Positions 5,738-50,116 of a stretch of 64,000 nt of DNA are shown one piece after another (positions within the stretch are counted from its first letter, which is position 1; each line of letters starts with the position of its first letter). The stretch lies in the NCBI GenBank assembly GCA_964540475.1, contig CAZIMC010000002.1, forward strand, positions 6,709 to 70,708. The letters are read 5' to 3'. The translations under genes were made by a program, and so were the position numbers. The notes beneath the pieces are model-generated. The model saw only the letters and a program-made list of their open reading frames with translations. It ran no database searches and had not been told where the DNA came from. Origin of the DNA: an uncultured Gammaproteobacteria bacterium. GTDB lineage: Bacteria; Patescibacteriota; Microgenomatia; UBA8517.

Positions 5738-8659
5738 ATGGTGAGCAAAAATATTACCTACGATCATAGGTCAGTTGAGGCTAGATGGCGGGATTACTGG
5801 GACAATTCAGGACTATACAAAACTGATCTGAATGCTTCGAGGGGACGTTTTTACAATTTATGGATGTTCCCGTATCCTTCCGGGGAGGGTCTACATGCCG
5901 GGCACGCTTTTGCTTCAACAGGTAGCGACATTTACGGCCGTTTTATGAGAATGAAAGGTAGAGAAGTGTTTCAGCCAATCGGCTACGACTCATTTGGCAT
6001 TCATTCTGAAAATTTTGCGATCAAGACAGGTGAAACGCCTCAAATAATGCTTACACGCACAACTAAGCACTACGAAGCACAGTTAAGAAGCCTGGGCCAC
6101 GGCTATGATTGGAGTAGAGTGTTGAGTACTTCTGATATAGATTATTATAAATGGACACAGTGGCTATTTGTCGAAATGTTTAAGGCTGGCCTTGCATACA
6201 AGAAAAAAGCTAGCGTTAATTATTGTCCTTCGTGCAAGACGGTGTTGGCAGACGAGCAGGTAATGACGCCAAAGCAGGCTGGGAAAGAACCCAAAGACGC
6301 AAGGGGTAATAGGGTTTCTGGAACTGATGATACCCGAGTTTGCGAGCGATGTGGTACGGTGGTCCAAAAAAAAGAATTGGATCAGTGGTTTTTTAGGATT
6401 ACCGACTATGCAGACCGGCTACTTTCTGGTTTAGATAAAATTGATTGGAGCGAGCGCGTTAAGATTGCTCAAAGAGAGTGGATAGGGCGGTCCGAGGGGC
6501 TTCGGATCCAATTCCAAATTACAAATTCCAAATTACAAATTCCGGTGTGGACTAAGTTTTGGGAAACAATATATGGGGCTACTTTTCTGGTTGTTGCACC
6601 CGAATACGCACAAAACGAGCTTGTCCACTTGATTCCCCAGGAAAATAAAAAGAAAGTTCTTGAATATATCAAAATGTCTCTTAGTAAGTCAGAACAGCGG
6701 AGGAAAGAAGAGGCAAAAGAAAAAACCGGAGTGTTTACAGGAATTTACGCTGTAAATCCGGCAAATGGTCAAAAGATCCCTGTTTGGGTTACCGACTATG
6801 TGTTATTGGGTGTTGGAACGGGTGCTGTAATGGGAGTTCCTGCGCACGACAAGCGCGACTTTGAATTTGCAAGAAAATTCAACTTGAGACTTCTCCCTGT
6901 TGTCAAACCTAAAGATAGCGCATATAGAAGCTATTTGATGGGTGCAAAAGATATATCAGATAAAGATCTGGAAGATATCAAAGTAATGCTTGTCGAGACC
7001 GATAAAGACGGAGACAAAAAGCTTATCATACCTTCGGATTCACTTGCTGAATATAAAAAGCTTATAAAAGAGAAGTTAGACTTTGGATTTTGGAATGAAG
7101 TGGTGGGAGATACTGTATGGTTTTGCTTTAAAGATAAAACTGGTAATACAACAGAATATATATTATCAGAAAATAATATGTCAGAAATTGCTAAAAAATG
7201 TTCTGAGTTTAACAACGATCCGCTTGAAAAAACAGAGAACCTGTGGCTCTATTTAGCAGAGAATGATTGGTATCAGCCACTCATTGTTCAAGAAAATGGC
7301 GGGGAGTTAATTAACTCAGGGCGGTTTGATGGCATGTCCGCCTGGGGAGAGGGTAAGAAAAAGATGGCTGAGTGGATGATTAAGGAAAGTTTTGCCGAGT
7401 GGAGCACGACTTACCATTTACGAGATTGGTTAGTAAGCAGACAGCGCTACTGGGGGCCTCCGATTCCAATGATCTACTGCCCGAAATGCGCCAAGGAGGG
7501 CAGGAGCTGGCTTAGTCAAAATGAAGCTAACGTTAGGAAAGATCAGACAGACTGGACTCATGCGGGTTGGTACCCTGAAGAAAATTTACCTGTCATCTTG
7601 CCAGAAATGGATAACTATCAGCCCTTAGGTACCGGCAAAAGTCCTTTGGCATCTGTGCCTGATTTTTATGAGGCTAAATGTCCTTACTGTGATGGCGATG
7701 CTACTCGCGAGACAGATGTTTCAGATACATTTGTTGATTCCGCGTGGTATTTCTTAAGATATCCGAGTGTTAATGCAGAAAGTAATAGTAAATTACCCTT
7801 TGATCCAGGAATAACAAAGAAATGGTTACCAGTTTCACTATACTTTGGCGGTGCCGAACATTCAGTGCTGCATTTGATGTATGCCCGTTTTGTAACAATG
7901 ATGCTTTATGATTTGAAGCTAGTTGATTTCGAGGAGCCTTTCCCGAAGTTTTTTGCCCACGGTTTAATGATCAAGGACGGTGCAAAGATGAGTAAATCCA
8001 GAGGAAATGTGGTTAACCCGGATGAGTATATTGAAAAATATGGCGCAGACACCTTGAGACTTTACACCATGTTTATGGGGCCAATGGATGGATATCCGGA
8101 TTTTCGTGACAGTGGGATTGAGGGCATGAGGAGATTTATTAATAAGGTTTATAAACTTTTCGGTGAAGCATTGGTGGAGGAAGAAGCGAATGAAGTAATC
8201 ACAAAACTGCATCAAACCATAAAAAAGACTACCGAAGATATTCAAGGTTTTAGATACAATACCGCAATTGCGTCAATTATGGAATTGGTAAATCTTATCC
8301 AGGTCAAAGGTACTTCAGAAAATACACTAAATGTACTAGCCAGACTCCTGGCGCCATTCACCCCGCACTTAGCCGAGGAATTATGGCAAGAAGTGTTGAA
8401 GCAGAGCGGGTCAGTTCACAATGCAAGCTGGCCAGAACACAATCCTGAATTGATAAATGTGGATCAAGTTGAGCTTGTAGTTCAGGTAGACGGAAAAGTT
8501 CGTGCCCAATTAATGGTAGGCATTAATCATTCCAAGGATCGTGACTTTGTATTCGATTTAGCCAGAAGGGAGCCTAAAGTCGTTAAATGGCTAGAGGGTA
8601 AAGAGGTCAAAGATGAGATATTTATTCCTGAAAAGCTCATTAACTTTGTTACTAAATAA
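5738..8659 (+). CDS. leuS: Leucyl-tRNA synthetase
   Basis: HAGH (HIGH) motif near the N-terminus and KMSKS motif (KMSKSRGN), 973 aa, class I LeuS architecture with editing insertion. Confidence 0.95.
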   Translation: MVSKNITYDHRSVEARWRDYWDNSGLYKTDLNASRGRFYNLWMFPYPSGEGLHAGHAFASTGSDIYGRFMRMKGREVFQPIGYDSFGIHSENFAIKTGETPQIMLTRTTKHYEAQLRSLGHGYDWSRVLSTSDIDYYKWTQWLFVEMFKAGLAYKKKASVNYCPSCKTVLADEQVMTPKQAGKEPKDARGNRVSGTDDTRVCERCGTVVQKKELDQWFFRITDYADRLLSGLDKIDWSERVKIAQREWIGRSEGLRIQFQITNSKLQIPVWTKFWETIYGATFLVVAPEYAQNELVHLIPQENKKKVLEYIKMSLSKSEQRRKEEAKEKTGVFTGIYAVNPANGQKIPVWVTDYVLLGVGTGAVMGVPAHDKRDFEFARKFNLRLLPVVKPKDSAYRSYLMGAKDISDKDLEDIKVMLVETDKDGDKKLIIPSDSLAEYKKLIKEKLDFGFWNEVVGDTVWFCFKDKTGNTTEYILSENNMSEIAKKCSEFNNDPLEKTENLWLYLAENDWYQPLIVQENGGELINSGRFDGMSAWGEGKKKMAEWMIKESFAEWSTTYHLRDWLVSRQRYWGPPIPMIYCPKCAKEGRSWLSQNEANVRKDQTDWTHAGWYPEENLPVILPEMDNYQPLGTGKSPLASVPDFYEAKCPYCDGDATRETDVSDTFVDSAWYFLRYPSVNAESNSKLPFDPGITKKWLPVSLYFGGAEHSVLHLMYARFVTMMLYDLKLVDFEEPFPKFFAHGLMIKDGAKMSKSRGNVVNPDEYIEKYGADTLRLYTMFMGPMDGYPDFRDSGIEGMRRFINKVYKLFGEALVEEEANEVITKLHQTIKKTTEDIQGFRYNTAIASIMELVNLIQVKGTSENTLNVLARLLAPFTPHLAEELWQEVLKQSGSVHNASWPEHNPELINVDQVELVVQVDGKVRAQLMVGINHSKDRDFVFDLARREPKVVKWLEGKEVKDEIFIPEKLINFVTK
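6509..6544 (+). repeat. In-frame tandem repeat (about 14-nt unit caaattccaaatta x2.5) inside leuS, encoding IQFQITNSKLQIP.
   Basis: ccaattccaaattacaaattccaaattacaaattcc read directly from the sequence. Confidence 0.8.
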
Positions 8660-25170: not shown

Positions 25171-25242
25171 AGTAATTGATTTTGACTTATTGCTTTACAA
25201 TAATGTTGCAGAAAATAGTTAACTATCATTCATTGGGACTCT

Positions 25243-25619: not shown

Positions 25620-25911
25620 AGTTAATAGGATTGCTGAGAAGGAGCACAGTAGGTTTTTCTGGTGGCCATAGAGAGAACTGGTGGTTGGTGCAAACCAGTC
25701 GTACAGAAAAAAGCGAATTACACTCTGGAGCTGGTTTAAAGTAAATTAAACCCGGGTCGCCCGTAATAGCAAAAGGCGTGTCGCGCGAGTGATAAGCCCG
25801 AAAAGGTTAAGATGGTAACATTTTAACGAATCAAGGTGGTACCGCCTTAGAATGAAGGCCCTTGTTTGAACCTAGCATGTGGGTTCAAACAAGGGCCTTT
25901 TTTGATTTTAT
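25620..25911 (+). promoter_or_regulatory. Structured non-coding leader element L2, paralog of L1. It shares the GCAAACC-containing hairpin, the AAGGTGGTACCGCC-TTAGAA box, and a terminator hairpin of different sequence but the same position (covariation).
   Basis: ggtggtaccgcc at 25836-25847. Hairpin aaggcccttgtttgaacc...ggttcaaacaagggcctt plus U5 at 25855-25903. ATG at 25912. Confidence 0.55.
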
Positions 25912-31279: not shown

Positions 31280-33070
31280 TTAAGTTAAATCAACTTGAAG
31301 GTCCCAGAGATGCTTATATAAGCCATTTTCCTTCATAAGTAATTCTTTGTGTGAACCAATTTCCTTTATTTTTCCATCCTGCATGACAACAATTTTGTCC
31401 GCCTTCATGATTGTTGAAAGACGGTGGGCGATAACAATTGTTGTTTTGTTTTTAGCCGTTTTCCAGAAAGACTCCTGAATAAGGCGCTCAGATTCAGAAT
31501 CAAGGTGGCTTGTTGCCTCGTCAAAAATGATTATAGAAGGATCCGCCAAAATTACTCTTGCGATTGCAAGACGTTGTTTTTGGCCGCCAGAGAGCTTAAC
31601 TCCACGTTCGCCAACTTCTGTTTTATACTTCTTGGGTAGACTTTCAATAAACTCATCAATATTTGCAAGCTTGGTCGCCGCTTTTATTTCTTTTAAGCTA
31701 GCTTCCGGCTTGGCGTAGCCGATGTTATAAGCAATAGTGTTGTTAAAAAGTATTGGCTCCTGGGGGACAAGGCCAATGAAGCTTCTTAAATTGCTTTTTG
31801 TAACATCCTTAATGTTAACGCCGTCGATAGTAATTTCTCCCTTTTGTGGATCGTAAAAGCGCATTAAAAGCCGAATCATCGTAGTTTTACCGGAACCAGA
31901 TCTTCCAACAAGTGCAACGGATTGTCCCTGGCGGATATTTAGAGATAGGCCATTGATCGCATGTTTGGTACGCTCTTTATATGAAAAGGAAATATTTTTA
32001 AATTGAATTTCACCACGAACTTGCTCCAAACCGACCGGATTGTCAGGATCTTTAACAGATATGTTATAGTCCAATACACCGAAATATTTCTCTATATCCG
32101 AGTAATTTTTAGCAATCTCTCTAAAGCCCCATACCATGTCCCACAGTCTAGGGTAGAAAATCCCAATAAAACCCGTAACTAGAACAAAGTCTGCGATAGT
32201 CATTGTACCCGTGACGGTCTCCCTAAGACTTAATAGAAGTATCGCAAACATACTAATGTTTATTATTGAGAAAACATCAATATCGATATATCTGAATGAA
32301 TATGTATATCCCCAAAGTGCTTTAAGCCAGGGGACGAGGCTACCACTCAAACGGTTTCTTTCCCAGGATTCTTTTGCAAAATATTTAACAGTGTCAAAGT
32401 TTATTAGATTATCAACGATTACTCCTGAGACCTTATCCTCCTCGGAATTAAATTCATCGCGACGTTGAACATTTTTCTTGATTAGAAACTTCATACTTAC
32501 AATAGTTACGATGAATGAAAGCAGTACAATTCCAGCAACCATAATGTTAAGGCTTACGAAAAAACCGAACATTACAATGAAGCCAACCAGAACGTTTAAT
32601 AAATTGTGGTGAATTGAGTGAAACAAGTTATAATATGCCCCATCGCCTCGTTTGAAAGTTGAGATCAGTGAACCGGTGCTTTTTGATGAATGAAAAGCAA
32701 AATCAAGGTCCTGGACGTGGTTAAAAATTTCTCGTCTAGCGTCGGTTGCCGCGCTAAAGAGAACCTTGTCTCCAACTAAAAACGAACCAATATCCAAAGC
32801 TTGACCAACGATGCGAACCCCCATAAAAACTAAAAGAATACCAACAAGTTTTTGGTAATCTAAGGAAGGGATGTTTTCTACAAAGAGCTTATAAAAGTAT
32901 GGGTTTAATGAAAATATAACTGCGGTTCCAATAACCATAAAAAGGAAGACAATAAAAATTGCCTTTTTCTTAAAAACAAAGCTATAAAATACTTTTAGAA
33001 CTTTAAACATAATTTTTTTATTGTTACTTTCTTGCGTCTCCAAGAAAGTAACCAAAGAAAGAGCCGCCAA
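31280..33070 (-). CDS. ABC transporter, fused permease/ATPase (MsbA-type exporter)
   Basis: Walker A GRSGSGKTT, signature LSGGQKQRLAIAR, Walker B IIIFDEATSHLD. Six N-terminal TM helices. Confidence 0.9.
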   Translation of the reverse strand: MAALSLVTFLETQESNNKKIMFKVLKVFYSFVFKKKAIFIVFLFMVIGTAVIFSLNPYFYKLFVENIPSLDYQKLVGILLVFMGVRIVGQALDIGSFLVGDKVLFSAATDARREIFNHVQDLDFAFHSSKSTGSLISTFKRGDGAYYNLFHSIHHNLLNVLVGFIVMFGFFVSLNIMVAGIVLLSFIVTIVSMKFLIKKNVQRRDEFNSEEDKVSGVIVDNLINFDTVKYFAKESWERNRLSGSLVPWLKALWGYTYSFRYIDIDVFSIINISMFAILLLSLRETVTGTMTIADFVLVTGFIGIFYPRLWDMVWGFREIAKNYSDIEKYFGVLDYNISVKDPDNPVGLEQVRGEIQFKNISFSYKERTKHAINGLSLNIRQGQSVALVGRSGSGKTTMIRLLMRFYDPQKGEITIDGVNIKDVTKSNLRSFIGLVPQEPILFNNTIAYNIGYAKPEASLKEIKAATKLANIDEFIESLPKKYKTEVGERGVKLSGGQKQRLAIARVILADPSIIIFDEATSHLDSESERLIQESFWKTAKNKTTIVIAHRLSTIMKADKIVVMQDGKIKEIGSHKELLMKENGLYKHLWDLQVDLT

Positions 33071-33404: not shown

Positions 33405-34268
33405 ATGGCTACTTTCTTTAACTTAAATCCCATGCGTAAACCTTTCATATTATTGGCGTTTTTAGTAAGTCTTTTCGGTAGCTTTTTTGCAAGTACGGCA
33501 GTTTTTGCGCAAGCTCAGGTTACTGAGGAGAAAGTAGAATTACAGCAGCAGGTTACAGGATTAGAATTGCAACTTGAAACTCAAGAATTAGGGCCAGTGC
33601 TGCCATTTAACCCAGTTAAATACGCTATACGCCGTGCGGTGTCTGCAGGTGTTCCAGCAAACACAATTGTAATGCTACTCCTTTTACCATTAGTAGCTGC
33701 CATCATAGCTGCAACACGGCATATTGTGGGGCTTCGGGGGTTTGGGATTTTTCTTCCTGCCGCTCTGGCCGTAACATTTCTGGCGATTGGTCCGCTTTTG
33801 GGAATAGGGTTATTTTTAATAATTGTTACTGTTTCAACAATTTCAAGAATTACACTCAGGCGTCTCAAGTTAAAGCTTCAGTACTTGCCCCGCATGGCAT
33901 TAATTTTATGGTTCGTGTCATTTGCCGTTTTGGTGGTACTGTTCGCTGCACCACTGGCTCCGCTTTTGGGGTTAGCGAACATTTCTATCTTTGCTGTTCT
34001 AATATTAGCCCTGTTGGCCGAAGACTTCACCCGGGTTCAGTTAGGCAAGAGTGCCAAGGTGGCTGTGAATTTAACGATTGAGACTATTATTCTGGCTTTA
34101 ATCTCATTCTTCTTCTTGACCTTGCCTGCTATCCAAGCATTTGCACTTCTGCGACCAGAAATTATGTTACTTGGCATATTTGCTTTCAATCTATTACTTG
34201 GTCGTTACACGGGTCTTCGACTTTTGGAAATTTGGCGGTTCAGGAAAATGATTTTTAACTTGAAATGA
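33405..34268 (+). CDS. Signal peptide plus 7TM membrane protein of the type that partners RimK-like ATP-grasp ligases (7TM_transglut-like). No transglutaminase-like domain is present.
   Basis: Seven hydrophobic helices after a coiled N-terminal segment. ATGA overlap with the downstream ATP-grasp gene. Family assignment is by architecture and context, so this is an inference. Confidence 0.5.
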   Translation: MATFFNLNPMRKPFILLAFLVSLFGSFFASTAVFAQAQVTEEKVELQQQVTGLELQLETQELGPVLPFNPVKYAIRRAVSAGVPANTIVMLLLLPLVAAIIAATRHIVGLRGFGIFLPAALAVTFLAIGPLLGIGLFLIIVTVSTISRITLRRLKLKLQYLPRMALILWFVSFAVLVVLFAAPLAPLLGLANISIFAVLILALLAEDFTRVQLGKSAKVAVNLTIETIILALISFFFLTLPAIQAFALLRPEIMLLGIFAFNLLLGRYTGLRLLEIWRFRKMIFNLK

Positions 34269-35584
34269 AGTTAGCTAATGTCCTTGGTCTAAACGCAAGA
34301 TCGCAATTGTTTGCCTACAAATACAATAATCTGCGTAGTAAAAAGGTGGCAGATTCAAAAATCCAAACTGCACGGATATTGGCAAACGCCGGTGTTCCGA
34401 CCCCTCAACTTTATCAGAAGTTCAGAAATGCAAGAGAAATATTTAATTTTGATTGGCTTACATTACCTGATTCGTTTGCTCTAAAGCCAAGTAAAGGCTT
34501 GGGAGGGGAGGGTATCATTGTCATAAAAAAACGTAGCGAAGGCGGAGAAGGCTATATAACTACACAAAGGAAAAAAGTTACTCCAGATGACTTGAAACTT
34601 CACGCATTGGATATAGTAGAAGGTGCATTTAGTATGACGAGTGAGCCGGATGTTGCTTTGGTTCAGGAGTATGTGGGAAGACATAAGGCGTTTAGAAAGT
34701 ACGCCTATCGCGGCACTCCGGATATAAGAATTATAGTTTTTAATAAAGTGCCTGTTATGGCTATGCTTCGGCTTCCAACTAAAGAATCAGGGGGTCGGGC
34801 GAATATGTTTCAAGGAGCAATTGCGGTTGGTGTTGATATAGCCACGGGAATTACCACCAGGGCAGTTCTTCATGGTGATTTAATTACCTATAAACCTGGA
34901 ACTAAACGTAAACTGCGAGGAATTAAAATACCCAACTGGACAGAAGTATTAGAAACCGCAGTTAAGGCCCAGATTGCATCGGGACTGGGATACTTGGGTG
35001 TTGATATCGTATTGCACCCGGAGAAGGGACCCCAGGTTTTAGAATTAAATGCCCAGCCGGGGCTTAAGATTCAACTTGCGAATATGGCAGGGCTAAAGAA
35101 GCGTTTAGAAAGAGTTGAAGATTTAGAAGTACGCGATGCCGAGCATGGTGTTAAAATTGCAAAAGCTCTTTTTGCCTCTTCATTTGCCACCAAGGTAAAG
35201 CCGGATGAGTCACTGAAGATAATAGAGCCAGTTGAAACTGTAAAAGTTTTGTCGGCCAGCGGGAAGAAGGAAGGTGTTTTGGCGAGGATTGATACTGGCG
35301 CTGTAAGAAGTTCAATAGACAAAGGCTTAGCAGATAAGCTTGGACTAATGACTAAGGAGAACATACTTTGGAAAGATAGATATGAGTACAGGTCGGCAAC
35401 AGGTTTACAAACTCGTCCAGTAATCGGTATAACCTTTTGGTTAGGAGGAAAGAAAAAAGTTACAAGCGCTTCGGTTGCCGACAGATCGAAAATGCAATAC
35501 AAGATGTTGATTGGAAGAAGGGATATGAGTGGTTTTCTTGTAAAGCCGGAATTTACCGGCCAATCTCCTCTAGGTAGTCAATAA
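34265..35584 (+). CDS. RimK-like ATP-grasp ligase (alpha-L-glutamate-ligase-related) fused to a C-terminal retropepsin-like 'putative ATP-dependent Zn protease' domain
   Basis: ATP-grasp core (ALKPSKGLGGEGIIVIKK...VLELNAQPG). C-terminal RIDTGAVRSSID...MLIGRRDMSGF resembles the PF05618 aspartyl-protease-like domain. Confidence 0.7.
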   Translation: MKLANVLGLNARSQLFAYKYNNLRSKKVADSKIQTARILANAGVPTPQLYQKFRNAREIFNFDWLTLPDSFALKPSKGLGGEGIIVIKKRSEGGEGYITTQRKKVTPDDLKLHALDIVEGAFSMTSEPDVALVQEYVGRHKAFRKYAYRGTPDIRIIVFNKVPVMAMLRLPTKESGGRANMFQGAIAVGVDIATGITTRAVLHGDLITYKPGTKRKLRGIKIPNWTEVLETAVKAQIASGLGYLGVDIVLHPEKGPQVLELNAQPGLKIQLANMAGLKKRLERVEDLEVRDAEHGVKIAKALFASSFATKVKPDESLKIIEPVETVKVLSASGKKEGVLARIDTGAVRSSIDKGLADKLGLMTKENILWKDRYEYRSATGLQTRPVIGITFWLGGKKKVTSASVADRSKMQYKMLIGRRDMSGFLVKPEFTGQSPLGSQ

Positions 35585-36389
35585 TCCTGGAAGCAACATT
35601 TATACCGGTAGTCTTTGTAAAGCCTTCCCATTGCGGAATACTGTTTGTCTCGATCATATAAACCTTTTCTTTGTTTTGCATAAAATCTACGCCTGCAATT
35701 TCTAGGTCAAGATTTTTACATATTAGTTCAGACATGTTAAAAAGTCTCATTCTCAGGTCGGCATTTTCGACTTTCTCACCGAAACCTCCGAGGGATATAT
35801 TGGCCCTAAATTCTCCCTGTTTCGGCCTACGCTTAAAAGTACCCACCGCCTTGCCCCCCACAACTATAACCCGATAATCTCCGTCGTTTTCAAGGAATTC
35901 TTGAAGGATAAAACTTGTCAGGTTTGTGGATTCTATTGTAGCTTTAAGTTCATCATTATCTTTACAGAGGAAAACGCCTTCTCCTTTAGCGCTTATATTA
36001 CTTTTAACGACGAGGGGAAAGCCTAGAATTTTGGAAGCATTTTCAATTGCATTTCTCGAAGATTTAATGAAAAATGTTTTAGGGGTCGGTATACCCAGCT
36101 TTTGTGCTTCCGAGATTTGGTAATATTTCCTTCCTATTAAAGGTTTCGTGGCATACGCAGTGTTGATAAACGGAATACTGCGCAAGAGTGCCTCCTTTGC
36201 AACAACACTTCTTTTTTCTGGATGCCCAACGCGCCAATATATAGCCTGGTGTGACTCAAAAAAATTGCCAAAGGGCACTGGGATGATATCGGAATTGATA
36301 ACATCCAAGACATGACTCCTTCTCTTTGCCACTTCAAAGAGATTTTTGTCTTGGAAAAACTGACCCGTCGAGATTAGTGCGAATTTCAT
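35553..36389 (-). CDS. RimK-family ATP-grasp ligase (paralog 2). Start assigned to MKFALIS; the ORF track extends to 36425.
   Basis: KGEGVFLCKDNDEL and LDLEIAGVDFMQ...YMIETNSIPQWEGF ATP-grasp motifs. Confidence 0.75.
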   Translation of the reverse strand: MKFALISTGQFFQDKNLFEVAKRRSHVLDVINSDIIPVPFGNFFESHQAIYWRVGHPEKRSVVAKEALLRSIPFINTAYATKPLIGRKYYQISEAQKLGIPTPKTFFIKSSRNAIENASKILGFPLVVKSNISAKGEGVFLCKDNDELKATIESTNLTSFILQEFLENDGDYRVIVVGGKAVGTFKRRPKQGEFRANISLGGFGEKVENADLRMRLFNMSELICKNLDLEIAGVDFMQNKEKVYMIETNSIPQWEGFTKTTGINVASRIIDYLEEIGR

Positions 36390-37351
36390 ATCGTAAGTTT
36401 TGGTCCGGAAAACAAGCCGTTCCACTCCGCCAGTAGCATTATAACTAAAGTATTGGCGTGCTCAAATAAGGCGTCCTTTGATTCATTCAGATCGAGTAGT
36501 CCAGTATCCTCGTTAACTTTTTGGTAAATTAGCTCTTTATAACCTTCTAGCTCCGTCTCGTAGTCTGGATTTAACTTAAACACTACGCCGGTTTCAGCAA
36601 TCAGGTCAAGATTTTGTGAATTAAAGATATAAGACCTATTAGATTTAAAGTATTCATAAACCCAGCAATACTCTTTGTTGTTAGGGTATTTTTGGTAATA
36701 ACCAGAATCAGCAATAAGGATGTGTGTGTACGCATAAATGTTATTCAAAAAATTAAATTCTGAGGTGGTATTAATTTTAGTGGCAGGGTAAAGGAGTTTG
36801 AGAGATTTTATAACGCTATCGGTAATATTGGTTATTTCCAAATCTTTTAACCAGAATGCTAAATTTATATTCTGAACAGGATCAAAAAATAGTAGATCAT
36901 TATCTGAGAATATTTTTTTCCAATCAATTCTGCCTAATCTTGTGATGGCCACTTTATATCCTTGTGAGTTAAGATATTTGCTAACTTGGTAATCTGAAAT
37001 TTTTAGCATTAAATAAATCAAACTTTGATAATATTTTATTTCTGGATGTTTTTCGTAATACTCCCATCGTATTTTTTTGAGGGGGGATAGATCTTTAAGA
37101 AGATTTAGTTTTTCTAACCCTTCCCGTTTCTCTTTACTTATATCTCCGGCAATTTTAGCTTTGTTCTCAAAATCCCGCATTAATTCCTGGAAAGCACTGG
37201 AAAGTGGAGGAATAAACCGTGCTTGACCTGTGACTCTATACATACGCTCATAAAAGTGAAGTTTTCTGTTAGGCCTAAAGCTTTCTATTCTTTTGGCTAG
37301 ATTGGTTATGGCCCGCTCTGAAGCTTTCTTGTAAATTGGGTTTGCTGTCAT
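36386..37351 (-). CDS. Conserved hypothetical protein (321 aa) embedded between two ATP-grasp genes with overlapping stop/start codons
   Basis: ORF only. Translational coupling on both sides. No domain recognised by eye. Confidence 0.6.
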   Translation of the reverse strand: MTANPIYKKASERAITNLAKRIESFRPNRKLHFYERMYRVTGQARFIPPLSSAFQELMRDFENKAKIAGDISKEKREGLEKLNLLKDLSPLKKIRWEYYEKHPEIKYYQSLIYLMLKISDYQVSKYLNSQGYKVAITRLGRIDWKKIFSDNDLLFFDPVQNINLAFWLKDLEITNITDSVIKSLKLLYPATKINTTSEFNFLNNIYAYTHILIADSGYYQKYPNNKEYCWVYEYFKSNRSYIFNSQNLDLIAETGVVFKLNPDYETELEGYKELIYQKVNEDTGLLDLNESKDALFEHANTLVIMLLAEWNGLFSGPKLTI

Positions 37352-38187
37352 TAAAGTTGTGAAAGCCTTGCCACGATTTTTTTAGCCACACTGACTCCGG
37401 TTATTTCTTCTAAAGTTTTAAAACCAGCGTCTATGTTTATCTCCAATATCCTGGGCTTTCCGCCAATATGGATGATATCAACACCCAGACAGTCAGCTTC
37501 TAGATGTTTTGAGGCAGAAAGAGCAAGAGAGACCTCTTCATTTGTGGGGGTATAGTTTTCTGAAATACCGTCAATGGCAGATTTAAAACTATTAGTTGCA
37601 ATCCTCTTATACGAGGCAACAACGCTTTCTCCTACAACAAAAATTCTTAAATCATACCCAGTATCAATAAATGGTTGTATAAACACATTTGCTAAACGAT
37701 GTTTTTTTAACTCAAGACTTAAATCTTTTTCGGAATTAACTTTCCAAACCTTCTTGGACCTATTTCCTTTGGTTGCTTTTAATATTACAGGAAAATCAAA
37801 AGGGGATTTGAAATTAGATTTTAAGGATTGAAAGCTTGGAACAACAGGAATCCCGGCCTCTTCAAGTACTAAATACTCGATTAGTTTGTTGTAATCAGGT
37901 AATTTAAGAATTAAGTTTTTGTTAAATGTCTTTACCCCAAGCTCATCTGCTTTTCTCACAAGGATTGTTCGTTGATTATAATATCCGTCGCTTATTCTGG
38001 TTAGCAGGTGTGTATATTCCCTGAGTGGTTTTTCCCCAAGCTCGATTTGTAAACCGTTTTCTCCCCAGTGAAAGCAGACCTCTTTCCAGTTATATATGTC
38101 AATTACCTGAAAATTTTCTCTTGCCTCTTGGCAGATTCTCTTGATTGAATATAAGCTTTTTTTATTACCAATAATAGCCAACTTCAT
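37351..38187 (-). CDS. RimK-family ATP-grasp ligase (paralog 3)
   Basis: DLRIFVVGESVVASYKR and GVDIIHIGGKPRILEINIDAGF ATP-grasp motifs. Confidence 0.75.
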   Translation of the reverse strand: MKLAIIGNKKSLYSIKRICQEARENFQVIDIYNWKEVCFHWGENGLQIELGEKPLREYTHLLTRISDGYYNQRTILVRKADELGVKTFNKNLILKLPDYNKLIEYLVLEEAGIPVVPSFQSLKSNFKSPFDFPVILKATKGNRSKKVWKVNSEKDLSLELKKHRLANVFIQPFIDTGYDLRIFVVGESVVASYKRIATNSFKSAIDGISENYTPTNEEVSLALSASKHLEADCLGVDIIHIGGKPRILEINIDAGFKTLEEITGVSVAKKIVARLSQL

Positions 38188-38242
38188 GATGAGTTGTTAA
38201 ATTATATCAAAGAAGCTATTCATTTGGTAAAATAGGTAAGAT

Positions 38243-39133
38243 ATGAAGTTATTGGTATTAAACCGGAGTAGGAACGATTACGCAAAAGGGAGGTTTTTAA
38301 GTGAAGCGAGAAATTTAGGAATTGAGGCAAATGTTATAAACTATTCGCATCTTCATATTTTTCTAAAGGAAGGCCGGTTAAGCGTCACTGCGATGGATGG
38401 ACAGAACTTAGAAGACTTTGACTTGATGGTTGTAAGAAGCCCGGGTTTGACCAACCGTTATACTTGGCAGGAAAGAGTAATTATCGAGTGGATGCATGGT
38501 TACGGGAAAAGAGTTCTTAACTATGATTCTTTAACAACTTACCCGGGAGAATTTGATAAGCTTTTGCAAACGCATATATTCCTAAAAAACGGTATTCCTT
38601 TTGTTGAAACCCACAGTTTGGGCACTTCCACCTTTTTGGAACAGAATGTACTTACATATCCATTTATTTTAAAACGAACAATGGGAAGTTTGGGTCGCGA
38701 CTTTATAGTGGTTAGAAGCAAAGTCCAGTTAGATGAGTTTTTAAGAGATAAGAGTTTGTTCGAGTTTATTGCGCAGCCATTTTTGCCTACAGGCGCGGAC
38801 TTTCGGGTTATTGTTCTGGGGGGGCAAGTTCTGGGAGCAATGAAACGAAGTACCGATTCTCCCGACAAGCCAACAAATGCCGCGGCAGGCGGACGAGTTG
38901 AAAAGGCAGAATTAACTCCCAAGCTTGAAGAACTCGCCCTAAGAGCGGCAAAAAGCCTGAGTTGTGAATTTTGCGGGGTTGATATTATGCATGACCTGGA
39001 AGGAACTGCATACGTATTGGAGGTTAACAGATATTCTGTCTTTAAAGAGTTTGAAAAAGTTACCGGAGTTAATGTTGCAGGGAAAATCATTGAGTATTTA
39101 ATTGCAACTGTTAAAAATGACGGAAAATCCTAA
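38243..39133 (+). CDS. RimK-family ATP-grasp ligase (paralog 4)
   Basis: DFRVIVLGGQVLGAMKR and CGVDIMHDLEGTAYVLEVNRYS ATP-grasp motifs. Confidence 0.75.
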   Translation: MKLLVLNRSRNDYAKGRFLSEARNLGIEANVINYSHLHIFLKEGRLSVTAMDGQNLEDFDLMVVRSPGLTNRYTWQERVIIEWMHGYGKRVLNYDSLTTYPGEFDKLLQTHIFLKNGIPFVETHSLGTSTFLEQNVLTYPFILKRTMGSLGRDFIVVRSKVQLDEFLRDKSLFEFIAQPFLPTGADFRVIVLGGQVLGAMKRSTDSPDKPTNAAAGGRVEKAELTPKLEELALRAAKSLSCEFCGVDIMHDLEGTAYVLEVNRYSVFKEFEKVTGVNVAGKIIEYLIATVKNDGKS

Positions 39134-39860
39134 ATCACCGGAAGTTTTGTCGCGGGGGAAAGTTTTAATAATAAATGCTTCACCCGGCAGAAACGCCCAT
39201 TTTGAAATAGCCGAAAGACTTTTTGATATCAAATCCGATACATTTGATAGTTTCGGAAACGCTGTAGTAAATCAGATAAAATCTCCGCCAAAAGAGGCTG
39301 GAATAACAAATACTCAAAGGTCAAATCAATCAGAGCTTGCTTTACCAGATTCCGTCGATGACTTTAAAGCCATAATTGTTAGCGGGAGTCCATATTCAGC
39401 CTATCCTTATGAAAGGAAAGAAGGGGGATATAAGCTTGCTTGGTGGAAACACGATCTTTTGCAGTTTGTATCACAGGCTGTTCGTTCTGGTAAACCCTAT
39501 TTTGGCATATGTTTTGGTGCGCAGATTCTAGCCGAAGCAACCGGTGGAAGGGTAGTTGAAATGCGCTCCGTAATGGGTAAAAAGCTAATCGAAAAGGGCT
39601 ATAGCATGGTCAACAAGTCTGCGGGTGCATTTAGTGATTCTGTGATGCGCGAATTGCCTGATAACTTTGTTGTAGACCAGAATCACTGGTCAGTTGTTGC
39701 AAACCTTCCCCCTGGTGGTGTTTTACTTGCTGAGAATAAATATGGAGTACAGGCCTTCAAAGTGGGGAATGCATATGGGGTGGAATTTCACCCAGAAAGG
39801 GGTACGCCCGTTACAGACTCACTGTTTAGGAATTTTCTCCAACTGGCTTGGAAAGAGTAG
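39102..39860 (+). CDS. Class-I glutamine amidotransferase-like / peptidase C26 (gamma-glutamyl hydrolase-like)
   Basis: Nucleophile Cys in YFGICFGAQILAEA, His in VEFHPE. 252 aa. Confidence 0.7.
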   Translation: MQLLKMTENPKSPEVLSRGKVLIINASPGRNAHFEIAERLFDIKSDTFDSFGNAVVNQIKSPPKEAGITNTQRSNQSELALPDSVDDFKAIIVSGSPYSAYPYERKEGGYKLAWWKHDLLQFVSQAVRSGKPYFGICFGAQILAEATGGRVVEMRSVMGKKLIEKGYSMVNKSAGAFSDSVMRELPDNFVVDQNHWSVVANLPPGGVLLAENKYGVQAFKVGNAYGVEFHPERGTPVTDSLFRNFLQLAWKE

Positions 39861-46001: not shown

Positions 46002-46967
46002 CTAAATCGGTAAATATTGATGAAGAATCTGGGTAGTTAAAAAGACCAGATAGACAGCCATAAGGATTAAGCCTTCTTTGCGCGAAATATCTCTATGTGA
46101 TCTGGAAAACCGGTAAAATATTGTTAGGCCTACAATTGCTAGAATTATTGTAAAGAGAAATCCGTTTTCTGCTTTTACGTCACCATTATTTATAAGTGTT
46201 AATACTCCAAAAAGAAAAGTGGTGGACGAGGCTGCGCCAATATAATCACCAAAGGCAATATCCTTTTTTCTAAGATATATCGATCTTATCGCAAGTGATA
46301 ATTCTGGCAGGTTAGTCCCGACAGAGAGGAAAAGCAGGCTTATTAAAAAGGGGGAAATGCCAAGAACGATTGAAAATTCTATTGTCTTATCAACGATAAT
46401 GTGCCCCGAAACGAAAACGATTGCAACACCGGCCATTGTTTTAAATATATCCCAAAGTGAGTATGAACGGATTTGTAGAAGTTTGTGATTTGAATTGTCA
46501 AAGATGCCCTTATCAAGCTGAATCACAACAAACAGAATCAGGTACAAAACTATACAGATAATACCTTCTGTATTTGTTACCTTCCGGTCAAGCACAAAAA
46601 ACAAAGGAGCTGTTGCAACAACGAGCGCGAGAATTAGTTGGTGGCCTTTGAGATCCTGGCCAATCTTTATCCCACCTCCCAGAATAGCTAGAATTGGTAT
46701 AACCAGAAAAAACAGCACTATTTTTCCGCCTATCAAATTTCCAATAAATATTTCTGGCAAACCTTCGGAAATTGACGTAAGCCCAACAGCAAGTTCCGGT
46801 ATAGAAGTCAAAATTCCTAAAATAAAAAATGAAATTGCAAACGCCGAAAGCTTAAGTCGCCGAGCAAAATCATCAACTGCATTGACTATCAAACCCGCAC
46901 CAATCCAAATGGCGAAGAATGAGCCTATATAAATGACAGCATCCTGGGCAAGCATAATATCCAGCAC
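46002..46967 (-). CDS. Ca2+/cation antiporter (CaCA family, YrbG-like)
   Basis: Two alpha-repeat signatures (G-SIPELAVG, GTNLPELSLAIRS). 10 TM. Confidence 0.8.
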   Translation of the reverse strand: MLDIMLAQDAVIYIGSFFAIWIGAGLIVNAVDDFARRLKLSAFAISFFILGILTSIPELAVGLTSISEGLPEIFIGNLIGGKIVLFFLVIPILAILGGGIKIGQDLKGHQLILALVVATAPLFFVLDRKVTNTEGIICIVLYLILFVVIQLDKGIFDNSNHKLLQIRSYSLWDIFKTMAGVAIVFVSGHIIVDKTIEFSIVLGISPFLISLLFLSVGTNLPELSLAIRSIYLRKKDIAFGDYIGAASSTTFLFGVLTLINNGDVKAENGFLFTIILAIVGLTIFYRFSRSHRDISRKEGLILMAVYLVFLTTQILHQYLPI

Positions 46968-47505: not shown

Positions 47506-47924
47506 GATATAATACCTGAACCAATCTGATAATTATGTCACAAGTTGAAGTAATATTTTATTTTGATCCTAAAATTCAAGAGCATGCCAATGAACGGTTA
47601 ACAAAGGCAGAAGACATATTAAGTAATCATGGGACAATAACAGGTGGAAGCTACAGATTGCTTAAGAGGGGAATTGAAGAGGTCACACTGCTTTCGAAAG
47701 CAAGCTAAACAGAGCCTGGCCTGAGGGCTGTGGTGCAGGCATTGTTCAGGAAGCTTAGGGTATAGAACAGCAAGACATAGAACTTAACACTGCACTCCTC
47801 GTTTACGAAGCATTTGATAATAGTACCCACAATCCTCACGGCTTAAATAATACCGAAACCATTATGGTTGAGAGAAAACAGGTGCGAGGATTAAAAACGA
47901 GCACAACACAATAAAGTATGTTTT

Positions 47925-48194
47925 TTACTGCCTAAAATATAGCATAAGGATCGCAGCAGTAAGGAGGATTAGTAGTACTACAATTCCAGCAAAAATTAAA
48001 GTAAGCAGTGTAGAAATTTTGTTCAATGAATTAGTAAAGTTGTTAAACCAACGAAGCACCGCTTCCATCTTCGGATAGTTTTTCTCCATCCCAGATAGTC
48101 TGGTGCGCAGTTTGGGTAGGAGAAGTGGGCCCAAAAGGGCAGCAGCAATGATTACTAATATCTTCATCACAATATAATTATAACATTGGGTCAT
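47925..48194 (-). CDS. Small membrane protein (89 aa, 2 TM)
   Basis: ORF with two hydrophobic helices. Confidence 0.45.
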   Translation of the reverse strand: MTQCYNYIVMKILVIIAAALLGPLLLPKLRTRLSGMEKNYPKMEAVLRWFNNFTNSLNKISTLLTLIFAGIVVLLILLTAAILMLYFRQ

Positions 48195-48272
48195 AGAAGT
48201 TTTTGTATTTTAATTAATATGTAGACAAGCTGCTTATTGACAAATGCAACCCTGTTGCATTAGTATATTCGA

Positions 48273-49052
48273 ATGATAAATTTGGTTCAACCAAGCCGAA
48301 TTGAGCAAATTTACACAAGCATATTAGCTTTTAAGTCGTTAAAGCCTAACAACGAGGTAAACACAGCGTTTGAAAACTTAGTTAGATACTCACTTAGTCA
48401 ACATAAAATTGAACTAGATGTTAGAAAAATAAGTCGCCTTCAAAAAATATGCAGCAAAGCAGAATATGAGCTTGAGCTGCACTGGAGTAAATTAATAGCA
48501 AAAAGTGATAATTCCTGGGAAAAACTGCGACAGTTTCCATACCACAAGAACTATCAAGGTCTGACGAAAATGGAATGGCTCAGTTTACTTGGTTGTACGA
48601 ACCATAAAAGTCATTCTGTACTTTTTATTGGTGGCGGGCCACTTCCGCTTACAGCAATTGAATTAGCTAAAAACTACAATATTCCAGTCACAGTCCTCGA
48701 GAGAGTAAAAGAGGCTGCAGTTTTATCTAATAAATTAATTACCAAGTTGCAGCTTGGCGACAGAGTTAAGATATTACAAAGAGACGCGGCACGTTTTCAG
48801 GATTATTCAAAGTACAACGTCATATTTTTGGCTGCATTAGCGGGGGTTAAGGCAGATGAAAAAACTAGAATATTATCGCTTTTTAAAACACATGCAAAAT
48901 CCGGGACACATATTTTAGCAAGAAGTAGTTGGGGTAATCGCAAGCTACTTTATAAACCACTCAACGTTCGGGAAATAATGATGCTTAAGCCGATTTTGGA
49001 AGTCAGGCCTCATAATGACGTGGTCAATTCTGTAATAATTTTCCAAGTATGA
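48273..49052 (+). CDS. Nicotianamine-synthase-like (NAS/CntL-like) SAM-dependent aminobutyryl transferase
   Basis: LFIGGGPLPLTAIELA and VIFLAALAGVKADEKTRIL...GTHILARSSWGNRKLLYKP match conserved NAS blocks. Confidence 0.7.
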   Translation: MINLVQPSRIEQIYTSILAFKSLKPNNEVNTAFENLVRYSLSQHKIELDVRKISRLQKICSKAEYELELHWSKLIAKSDNSWEKLRQFPYHKNYQGLTKMEWLSLLGCTNHKSHSVLFIGGGPLPLTAIELAKNYNIPVTVLERVKEAAVLSNKLITKLQLGDRVKILQRDAARFQDYSKYNVIFLAALAGVKADEKTRILSLFKTHAKSGTHILARSSWGNRKLLYKPLNVREIMMLKPILEVRPHNDVVNSVIIFQV

Positions 49053-49534
49053 GAATTATTATTCCATCTGAAATGAAACTCTCACTTGTGAGGGATTTTA
49101 TGTTGTTTATAGTTGAGGACGATTTTAATTATAAGTTTAACCCGGAATGGCACTGGGATATTGCGTCACTTAAGGAGACTTACTTAAATTCCAAGAGCTT
49201 ACTGTTGGCAGCAGAAGAGAAAGGTGAGATTATTGCAACTATTGCCGGGCGGCCATACGACCGGGATTATAGAAAACTAAAAGGAAAATATGATAATAAT
49301 ACGTTGGGAGTTTGGAGGCACTATGTTAAAAAAGAGTTACGCGGCAACGGAATTGGGACAAAATTATTAGATGAGTTTGAGAAACAAGCAAAGAATAAGG
49401 GCTATAAAAAGCTATACCTTCATACACAAAAAACAATACCTGGTTCACTTGAATATTGGCTCGCCAAGGGTTACCTGATTACAAATGATACTAATGATCG
49501 GTTTAAGACCGTTCACTTAGAGAAAACTTTTTAA
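49049..49534 (+). CDS. GNAT-family N-acetyltransferase, ATGA-coupled to the NAS-like gene
   Basis: Acetyl-CoA binding motif RGNGIGTKLLDEFEKQAKNKGYKKLYLHT. Confidence 0.75.
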   Translation: MRIIIPSEMKLSLVRDFMLFIVEDDFNYKFNPEWHWDIASLKETYLNSKSLLLAAEEKGEIIATIAGRPYDRDYRKLKGKYDNNTLGVWRHYVKKELRGNGIGTKLLDEFEKQAKNKGYKKLYLHTQKTIPGSLEYWLAKGYLITNDTNDRFKTVHLEKTF

Positions 49535-49537
49535 GGT

Positions 49538-50116
49538 TTAGTTTTCGTATCGAAAGCTTTCCAGAAGTCGATAATAAATTTCTCTGTCGGAATCTAAACT
49601 ATCTGGAGAAGAAAAGAGCCTGAACCAGAAAGTTTGGTTGTTTGCTGTAGCTACGAATTCAAGTTGGCTTTCTGGCATTTCCGGGTTATGGGAGGTTTCT
49701 TGCGTGGTTGCTATAAACAATTTCCCTGTTAAATTGCCGAACTCTCGTTCTTCTTCCAGTTGTCCATCAAACTCAGTTATAATTTTATCTTCAATCGACT
49801 GGGGTGATTCTTCTGTCATAATGACTGCAATGCTTGAAGCGGTGAAGTTGTTTTCTTCAGTTTGCTCAACAACATCAACCCGGTTAACTACTGGAGGGGT
49901 GGGGGGTTGGCCAATGGTCAATATCCAGTCTGCAGGGTACAAGAACGAAAAGCCGTCTTCGTGGCCATACTGTTGCCATTCATTCTGGGATTCGGGTGTT
50001 GGTGCGGGGGCGGTTGGTGCAAGGAAGTTTCGGAGTCCGCCTGTCCTGGCTGCAAAACCTACCAGTATTATGAGAAGTATTCCAGTTACGATAATTAATA
50101 TTCTATTCCTGTTCAT
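49538..50116 (-). CDS. Hypothetical membrane-anchored secreted protein
   Basis: N-terminal TM, Pro/Thr linker. No domain recognised. Confidence 0.5.
   Translation of the reverse strand: MNRNRILIIVTGILLIILVGFAARTGGLRNFLAPTAPAPTPESQNEWQQYGHEDGFSFLYPADWILTIGQPPTPPVVNRVDVVEQTEENNFTASSIAVIMTEESPQSIEDKIITEFDGQLEEEREFGNLTGKLFIATTQETSHNPEMPESQLEFVATANNQTFWFRLFSSPDSLDSDREIYYRLLESFRYEN

Follow-up and report, generated by a model that had tools for sequence, protein, structure and literature searches.

A nicotianamine synthase-family gene paired with a GNAT acetyltransferase gene in a Candidate Phyla Radiation bacterium and in other prokaryotes

Results

An overlapping gene pair

The DNA analysed here ('the window', 64,000 nucleotides; positions 6,709 to 70,708 of the forward strand of contig CAZIMC010000002.1, assembly GCA_964540475.1, placed by GTDB in the Patescibacteriota) carries a gene of the nicotianamine synthase (NAS) family that overlaps a gene for a GNAT N-acetyltransferase, and pairs of this kind were also found in other bacteria of the Candidate Phyla Radiation (CPR), in Actinomycetota and in methanogenic archaea. 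We rate at about even the chance that the two genes constitute a metal-starvation-inducible two-enzyme pathway for a modified chelator of the nicotianamine type. The pair comprises the following features:

48273 to 49052, plus strand: NAS-family gene (259 amino acids; Pfam NAS match, MtNAS-like AlphaFold2 model)
49049 to 49534, plus strand: NAS-associated GNAT N-acetyltransferase gene (161 amino acids; narrow subfamily, Pfam GNAT match)
49049 to 49052, plus strand: ATGA start/stop overlap of the NAS and GNAT genes (read from the sequence)

Both open reading frames and their ATGA overlap, described in an earlier note on this DNA, were confirmed in the list of open reading frames and in the sequence itself. 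In the sequence gtATGAgaa (49047-49055) the GNAT start codon (ATG, 49049) overlaps the NAS stop codon (TGA, 49050-49052), an arrangement predicted to couple translation so that GNAT is made in step with NAS. The same overlap (-4) was present in five related loci (L019, L080, L082, L118 and L120), and longer ones (-8 to -17) in three more (L006, L081 and L023). The family signals of both reading frames were far above chance level, and since both window proteins retained every invariant column of their own family alignments, both look functional.

The first gene encodes a NAS-family enzyme

The product of the first gene matched the Pfam NAS model (PF03059) with an E-value of 2.6e-52 and 178.3 bits (cut-off 27.1) over model positions 11-269 of 276, and contained, at residues 118-127, the block FIGGGPLPLT, in which the GGGPLPLT string quoted in the earlier note was recovered and the modified motif I (F-x-G-x-G-P-L-P) is present. 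A sequence search of the PDB returned the thermonicotianamine synthase of Methanothermobacter thermautotrophicus (MtNAS) with an E-value of 1.6e-18, and Staphylococcus aureus CntL marginally (E-value 0.45). The AlphaFold2 (AF2) model (pLDDT 94.9) consisted of an N-terminal helical domain and a Rossmann domain, superposable on both MtNAS and CntL; its template modelling (TM) score was 0.82 to MtNAS (3fpj/3fpe; full length, 26% identity), 0.73-0.76 to CntL (7c9m), and at most 0.52 to class-I methyltransferases, over the Rossmann half only. Residues E68 and Y94 aligned with E81 and Y107 of MtNAS and were invariant across 24 homologues; the MtNAS pair deprotonates the attacking amine (PMC10491745), and its equivalents in AtNAS1, E77 and Y106, are essential (PMC10248798). 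Judged from sequence and fold, the first gene is a genuine NAS-family transferase dependent on S-adenosylmethionine (SAM), with the transfer of 3-amino-3-carboxypropyl groups as its predicted chemistry.

The profile and structure comparisons with NAS and CntL, which the earlier note had proposed, supported membership of the NAS family. Its description of the gene as a NAS/CntL-like aminobutyryl-transferase held for the NAS part and failed for the CntL part, the NCBIfam CntL model (NF033601) scoring 19.5 bits against a cut-off of 350; on this score and the marginal PDB match, an assignment as CntL was rejected. The note had also considered that the gene might be better modelled as an unrelated class-I methyltransferase. 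A weak secondary Pfam match to RrnaAD (14.9 bits, below its cut-off) and the C-terminal Rossmann fold, which is common to methyltransferases, would be in keeping with an ordinary enzyme of that class lying next to GNAT by chance. This can practically be discounted in view of the full-length Pfam NAS match, the difference in TM scores over the whole fold (0.82 to MtNAS against 0.52 or less), the presence of the catalytic Glu and Tyr and of the GGGPLP motif, and the conservation of the pairing across phyla; the Pfam NAS score and the structural superposition refuted it as a reading of the first gene.

Several features place the window NAS close to the plant and fungal enzymes (EC 2.5.1.43; AtNAS1 and Neurospora NAS were compared). 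Four residues before the catalytic Glu, within AEYELELHW, stands E64, which corresponds to AtNAS1 E73. All aligned members of the CPR clade have this Glu, as does a fungal sequence (P0067); the Methanobacteria enzymes have Gly. Following AALAG, the window protein has a four-residue loop (AGVK) where AtNAS1 has VGMD (206-209) and MtNAS a four-residue gap; fungal (VGET) and Pyxidicoccus (VGMN) sequences have a loop of the same length and different letters at this place. The extra Glu and the VGMD loop were reported to be exclusive to plant NAS and essential in AtNAS1 (Seebach et al., PMC10248798), yet an extra Glu and a four-residue loop were found in the window NAS and its whole CPR clade. Near-identity was also seen in the active-site helix (ICSKAEYELELHW in the window, MCSNAEYELELHW in the fungal enzyme), Pfam NAS scores were nearly equal for window (178 bits) and fungal (187 bits) proteins, compared with 91 bits for Methanothermobacter NAS, and the window enzyme is a short core NAS lacking a C-terminal extension, as in the fungal/plant-type comparison. 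Differences from the plant and fungal enzymes are an overall identity of only about 33%, the loop letters (AGVK, not VGMD) and the predicted bacterial operator. Together these data suggest that the chemistry of the window NAS may be nearer to true nicotianamine synthesis than to the Glu- or His-primed prokaryotic variants, and because of E64 and the plant/fungal-type loop the product may be nicotianamine itself, not Glu-primed thermonicotianamine or the His-primed products of CntL.

A NAS-like domain was also seen in a giant protein of 2670 amino acids (P0176), at residues 617-872 and accompanied by a second matching stretch; the protein may be a multidomain synthetase that has taken in a NAS domain.

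The second gene encodes a member of a narrow GNAT subfamily

The second protein matched Pfam GNAT (PF00583) with an E-value of 3.2e-16 and 60 bits (cut-off 20.7), and carried the acyl-CoA-binding motif A (R/Q-x-x-G-x-G/A) as R98-G-N-G-I-G103. Its AF2 model (pLDDT 95) gave a TM score of 0.81 to the S. aureus GNAT 3d8p, itself uncharacterised. Outside the generic GNAT core the subfamily is marked by the motifs DFxY..NPEWH.DI, RPYD, WRHY, YLHTQK, GSLEYW and TVHLEK, the subfamily-wide forms of which (P.WH.D, R.YD, YLHT, GSLE/D-Y/F-W and TVHxEK) are all present in the window protein. In the subfamily alignment, CPR and Methanobacteria members share 37-41% identity.

None of the characterised GNAT equivalogs in NCBIfam, SSAT, AAC(6') and EctA included, reached its cut-off (ArsN1a, the best, 29.3 bits against 170; RimI 25.7 against 86.4; PaiA 16 against 250), and naming the acceptor by homology failed, as NCBIfam, PDB profile search and Foldseek gave generic or uncharacterised GNATs only. 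The nearest structures by PDB profile search and Foldseek were polyamine, N-alpha- and amino-acid alpha-N-acetyltransferases, which on the model would fit an amine acceptor, without naming it. By general GNAT architecture, the subfamily motifs probably fall on elements of the acceptor pocket, and the invariant residues include many His, Arg and Lys, a composition that would go well with a polycarboxylate as acceptor.

The pairing recurs across two domains of life

The NAS-seeded survey comprised 79 loci from species-representative genomes, of which the CPR part amounted to 29 species-level loci. Close relatives of the window NAS occurred in these 29 and in two DPANN loci; NAS is common in CPR, and the earlier note's view of such a pathway as unexpected in a reduced genome was not borne out. 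Among the NAS-seeded loci, a GNAT of the window type lay directly downstream of NAS in L006, L019 and L023, and overall NAS was followed by the same GNAT subfamily in about ten CPR loci (including, besides these three, L080-82, L118/119 and L120). In 11 of the 18 Methanobacteriaceae loci, among them one from a Methanothermobacter (L058, 70-bp gap), GNAT lay upstream of NAS in divergent orientation. Methanobacterium sp. MBAC-LM (L074:5088-8564) has two NAS paralogues in tandem (6552-7358 and 7761-8564), both located downstream of the divergent GNAT. Five actinobacterial loci had, next to NAS, a full-length subfamily member of more divergent sequence, and in L041 GNAT came before NAS. Starting from GNAT instead, 37 metagenome loci were collected and NAS was adjacent in 18 of them: three pairs were of the overlapping CPR type, and the other 15 were archaeal and divergent. 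Most of the loci with no adjacent NAS were too short to judge. With both starting points counted, GNAT adjoined NAS in more than 25 Methanobacteria loci.

Fusions of the two genes were recovered repeatedly. P0035 is an in-frame NAS-GNAT fusion, and an exhaustive search of 1.84 billion representatives yielded eight more fusion clusters with 26-35% identity to it; the clusters, at least nine in number (P0035, P0093, P0094, P0096, P0109, P0111, P0133, P0134 and P0194), represent at least two NAS subtypes, and one fusion, from a Doudnabacteria metagenome-assembled genome (MAG), is annotated merely as 'GNAT family N-acetyltransferase'. The GNAT subfamily itself is rare, with nine stand-alone and nine fused clusters among the best 150 matches in the 1.84 billion representatives, a list that favours fusions, which score on their NAS half too. 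Because of the overlap, the synteny across two domains of life and the repeated fusion, functional coupling of NAS and GNAT would be the sole reasonable reading of the genomic data. By its distribution, the pair appears to be ancient and widespread.

Six of the loci (L001, L002, L003, L011, L019 and L023) come from MAGs titled 'uncultured Gammaproteobacteria bacterium', yet have CPR-typical NAS proteins and neighbourhoods; the taxonomic labels of these MAGs look unreliable. For the window itself, the names carried by its closest MreB homologues point to a CPR bacterium of the Microgenomates/Woesebacteria group.

Candidate roles of the acetyltransferase

The preferred reading is that GNAT acetylates the product of NAS, and an N-acetylated product would be the most economical inference from the sequences. 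Three other roles were weighed. The first is self-protection, in which GNAT would detoxify a by-product of NAS (free azetidine-2-carboxylate, AZE, from misfired ring closure) or surplus chelator, the functional molecule being unacetylated. N-acetyltransferases do accompany bacterial AZE synthase clusters, where they have been read as detoxifiers (PMC11794875), the window NAS shares the plant/fungal-type features linked to azetidine-forming NAS, and the structural neighbours of GNAT include the BAR/PAT, ArsN and tabtoxin-resistance acetyltransferases, ArsN1 being the top, sub-threshold NCBIfam match. However, the Methanobacteria enzymes, whose product thermonicotianamine lacks an azetidine ring, have partners from the same GNAT subfamily, at least nine covalent 1:1 fusions are more in keeping with consecutive steps of a pathway than with a safety valve, and the PDB searches showed no particular likeness of GNAT to the yeast AZE acetyltransferase. 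Detoxification is therefore regarded as rather unlikely.

A second alternative reverses the order of the reactions: GNAT would acetylate a diamine, a diamino acid or a SAM-derived unit, and NAS would extend the remaining amine, so that the acetyl group defines the starter. It draws on the variation among prokaryotic NAS-like enzymes, which are distinguished chiefly by the amino acid that they start from (Glu, D-His or L-His; PMC10248798), on the polyamine acetyltransferases PaiA and Ta0374 among the close structural neighbours of GNAT, and on the GNAT-NAS order of L041. In CPR, by contrast, the order is always NAS then GNAT, all fusions included, the CPR NAS has features of enzymes that need no external starter, and NAS is widespread in the absence of GNAT and so cannot depend on an acetylated starter. 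We consider this order improbable.

In the third alternative GNAT would acetylate a protein, which could be NAS or, as with RimI, a ribosomal or metal-handling protein; or the adjacency would reflect co-regulation and no shared chemistry. Several GNAT loci lacking NAS, the 'RimI-like' JGI annotation of relatives, and the presence of RimI, Naa50/60 and the protein acetyltransferase HP0935 among the sequence and structure neighbours would agree with this. The RimI model nevertheless scored far below its cut-off (25.7 bits against 86.4), a narrow subfamily that tracks NAS across two domains and is fused to it at least nine times is unlike a general protein acetylase, and even the NAS-less occurrences are in metal or metallophore-transport contexts. 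A role of this kind is very unlikely.

Putative promoter and operator

As the NAS reading frame opens at 48264, position 48273 is the only possible NAS start, and no Shine-Dalgarno sequence was found before it. The best promoter-like site within 47800-49900 ends 6 nt before the NAS ATG, so that the mRNA would be leaderless or nearly so. Its spacer is filled by a palindrome:

48237 to 48266, plus strand: predicted sigma-70-like promoter, TTGACA-18 nt-TAGTAT (10 of 12 matches)
48243 to 48261, no strand assigned: putative operator, perfect 8-3-8 palindrome AATGCAAC-CCT-GTTGCATT, filling the promoter spacer

The operator core, TGCAA-N5-TTGCA (48245-48259), has one exact occurrence in the window. 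In the CPR loci it was found 20 times in 353 kb compared to 0.4 times expected; it lies 13-49 nt upstream of NAS in 9 of the 29 loci, and upstream of Fur genes in L003, L006, L007 and L120. The Nur box of Streptomyces has the 6-5-6 consensus tTGCaa-N5-ttGCAA (PMC2691836), which the window palindrome (aTGCAA-CCCTG-TTGCAt) matches. The palindrome is presumed to be the binding site of a Fur-family metal repressor encoded elsewhere.

No Nur-like box was present in the actinobacterial and methanogen loci. The divergent intergenic regions between NAS and GNAT in Methanobacteria contained a different element, the heptamer GTAATAC/GTATTAC, in 18 of 19 cases (for example L058:7640-7709 and L071:7669-7871) and at a density of 4.8 per kb, the rest of these loci having 0.34 per kb. 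Near the GNAT start, two copies in inverted orientation are often spaced about 25-27 nt from each other, and the heptamer is probably the site of an archaeal regulator common to NAS and GNAT.

The only one-mismatch copy of the operator core in the window, at 25196, is near a T-box leader (25627-25866; Rfam gathering score reached, 105 bits).

Metal-related gene neighbourhoods

In the CPR relatives, NAS was surrounded by genes for a Fur-family regulator, a COG0523/CobW GTPase, a ZIP transporter and a His-tailed YibE/F membrane protein. This context was seen in all GNAT-type CPR loci with enough flanking sequence, as in L117 with the order CobW-Fur-NAS::GNAT-ZIP, and a Fur-family gene was present in seven of nine distinct GNAT-type relatives. 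Divergent from the L117 operon, an ArsP_1-type permease and a TIGR03943 permease subunit (L117:2663-4593) were observed, a possible transporter for the chelator or its complex with metal in that organism. The neighbours of methanogen NAS were CbiM, CbiQ, an ABC ATPase, CbiX and HcgF. GNAT genes with no NAS beside them were also seen in metal-related surroundings: next to CobW in L084, and in L101 (2957-8696) inside an Opp/Nik-type importer operon (two oligo_HPY ATPases, GNAT and two family-5 solute-binding proteins), where NAS was absent over 5 kb. The L101 context hints that GNAT may act on imported metallophore-like substrates too.

The window pair is surrounded by housekeeping genes, without Fur, ZIP, CobW, CntM or Opp/Nik genes. 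As an isolated bicistron that has kept its operator, it would have to be controlled by a regulator acting in trans. A linked exporter or importer, for which the earlier note had proposed a search, was sought in the window and not found, the nearest transport genes, for a Na/Ca-exchanger-type membrane protein (46002-46967, opposite strand to the NAS pair) and an ABC exporter (31280-33067), recurring in no relatives. Elsewhere in the window (33405-39860), four RimK/ATP-grasp ligases, a 7TM_transglut membrane protein, a DUF3541 protein and a class-I glutamine amidotransferase form a cluster that looks like a peptide or poly-amino-acid ligase system, apparently unrelated to the NAS pair.

A second candidate accessory of NAS

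The commonest downstream partner of NAS in CPR was not GNAT but an unrelated protein of about 200 amino acids (range about 170-270), here called unk200, found in 15 of the 29 loci directly after NAS or after NAS-CobW, and also in two Nanohaloarchaea loci and one Methanosarcinales locus. It stands alone in, for example, L005:9688-10290 and forms the C-terminal half of a NAS fusion in P0064. An alignment that took in 18 other loci revealed invariant residues (W, Y, K, Y, H, C, R, W, E, K and W), and no relative was found in Pfam or the PDB. As unk200 was absent from every GNAT-type locus seen, as well as from the window, GNAT and unk200 look like alternative accessories of NAS, unk200 being a candidate for a second, entirely unknown accessory of a nicotianamine pathway. 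The idea that GNAT-linked NAS proteins form a clade of their own was not borne out, because in a crude neighbour-joining tree they were interspersed with unk200-linked ones, from which it follows that partners may have been exchanged repeatedly.

In the neighbour-joining tree, the NAS proteins of L020 and L021 (Nanohaloarchaea, DPANN), which have unk200 partners, were nested in the CPR NAS clade; this suggests NAS gene transfer between two ultra-small episymbiont lineages.

Discussion

Proposed pathway and points against it

In the pathway that we propose, a Fur-family repressor encoded outside the window would bind TGCAA-N5-TTGCA and block transcription when metal is sufficient, as judged from the operator and from the relatives, and metal limitation would lead to a derepressed, leaderless bicistronic mRNA. 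NAS would take 3-amino-3-carboxypropyl units from SAM and, with E68 and Y94 removing a proton from the attacking amine, assemble a nicotianamine-like polyaminocarboxylate. With acetyl-CoA as donor, the co-translated GNAT would then acetylate the one primary amine that this product has. The same primary amine is the target of the known downstream enzymes of the family, NAAT in grasses and CntM in bacteria. Acetylation would be expected to stop chain extension, to remove one positive charge and to change the donor set and metal preference. The molecule might then serve in metal acquisition or intracellular buffering in concert with ZIP, COG0523 and YibE/F proteins, the genes of which lie near NAS in relatives and are absent from the window. 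We infer the identity of the product, the site of acetylation, the repressor, the metal and the place of action (inside or outside the cell) from these patterns.

Several observations weigh against the proposal. The product and starter unit of NAS and the acceptor of GNAT cannot be read from sequence, and 3d8p, the closest structure to GNAT, is uncharacterised. An acetylated donor amine should bind Zn or Fe less well, which is awkward for a scavenger; speculatively, acetylation might instead tune selectivity (Ni and Cu can bind deprotonated amides), limit chain extension or mark the molecule for transport. GNAT was adjacent in only 3 of the 29 CPR species-level NAS loci, unk200 takes the place in 15 and several have neither, so GNAT is not essential to NAS function, and about five distinct GNAT loci with full flanks had no adjacent NAS. 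The window contained no Fur homologue by tblastn and profile search, no ZIP, CobW or YibE/F gene, and no exporter or importer of the expected kinds. Assignment of the metal through the regulator also failed: no NCBIfam model reached its cut-off for the CPR Fur proteins, their profile scores were 90-96 bits for Fur/PerR and 72 bits for Nur (3eyy), and NCBIfam and PDB profile search could not separate Zur, Nur and Fur. Zn is favoured as the metal, with Ni or Co possible.

Comparison with known systems

The closest characterised enzyme, MtNAS (3FPE/3FPF/3O31), shares with the window NAS the family, the two-domain fold, the Glu/Tyr pair and the GGGPLPLT SAM motif, and in its genus the same GNAT subfamily adjoins NAS, the genes of L058 being divergent across the 70-bp gap. 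It differs in having Gly at the place of E64 and in lacking the four-residue loop after AALA, and the methanogen loci differ in that GNAT is divergent, not overlapping, in their CbiMQO, CbiX and HcgF neighbours, and in the GTAATAC motif of the shared control region. The downstream enzymes of eukaryotic NAS are NAAT and DMAS, and we know of no eukaryotic NAS with an acetyltransferase partner.

The CntKLM pathways (staphylopine, pseudopaline, yersinopine and bacillopaline) likewise combine a NAS-family enzyme with a second enzyme acting on the free amine of its product, and are expressed under metal limitation with Fur-family repression, as predicted for the window. Their second enzyme, however, is an NAD(P)H-dependent reductive condensase, whereas that of the window is an acyl-CoA transferase. 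No CntM, CntK, CntABCDF or CntE/CntI was found at 29-63 kb of the window, among the recurrent neighbours of the 29 CPR loci or in L117-L120, although no CntM profile was run directly; with the CntL model failing and no linked Cnt partner genes, membership of a Cnt system was rejected. The earlier note had stated that CntL pairs with CntM and a racemase, not with an acetyltransferase; the lack of a linked CntM or CntK agrees with the contrast it drew, but its exclusion of acetyltransferases was too strict, as accessory ones, of unknown role, do occur occasionally in CntLM clusters (PMC7438024).

With the regulon of Nur, the nickel-responsive Fur homologue of Streptomyces coelicolor, the window shares the architecture and core sequence of the operator and its overlap with the promoter, and CPR relatives have a Fur-family gene beside the operator. 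On the other hand, the CPR regulators are not specifically Nur-like, the ZIP and COG0523 neighbours are more reminiscent of a zinc regulon, and the window lacks a regulator gene.

Implications

The literature searched contained no acetylated nicotianamine and, on NAS in CPR, only a passing mention of AzeJ homologues; no report of the NAS-GNAT pairing was found in the papers searched, an earlier mention of the archaeal GNAT neighbour in reviews of nicotianamine-like metallophores being possible. A survey of zincophore clusters was anchored on CntM and would, by its own statement, miss CntM-independent systems (PMC7438024), and a study from 2025 on the evolution of NAS, with four sequences from bacteria, described the distribution there as poorly known (PMC12454661). 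The kinds of enzyme and the overall logic are familiar, whereas the partner enzyme and the probable product are undescribed, and the pair reaches further across the phyla than expected.

Taking all groups together, it is possible, and we hold this only tentatively and at somewhat less than even confidence, that NAS and GNAT form an ancient pan-prokaryotic module (in CPR, Actinomycetota and Methanobacteria, and often fused) that makes N-acetylated nicotianamine-type chelators; that the methanogen product would be N-acetyl-thermonicotianamine, not the thermonicotianamine seen in crystals; and that the CPR enzymes make genuine nicotianamine and could represent the kind of lineage that donated NAS to eukaryotes.

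Nicotianamine-type chelators underlie the iron and zinc nutrition of plants and metal piracy by pathogens. To our knowledge, only two ways of finishing a molecule of this type have been known, and the pathway proposed here, if real, would add a third way of processing the terminal amine, beside the transamination and reduction known from grasses and the opine formation that CntM carries out. Encoded by two small genes, it would bring in an acetyltransferase with predictable effects on charge, chain-length control and metal preference. It would also revise the assumed product of the only structurally studied archaeal NAS, the GNAT neighbour of which went unmentioned in the papers searched. For the ultra-small CPR and DPANN symbionts, which are without most biosynthesis, the findings imply that they still spend SAM on a metal-handling molecule under predicted repressor control, which bears on how they get metals from their hosts or compete with them for metals. 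Finally, with bacterial sampling thin (PMC12454661), a CPR NAS carrying residues reported as plant-specific is relevant to the question of which prokaryotes donated NAS to fungi and plants.

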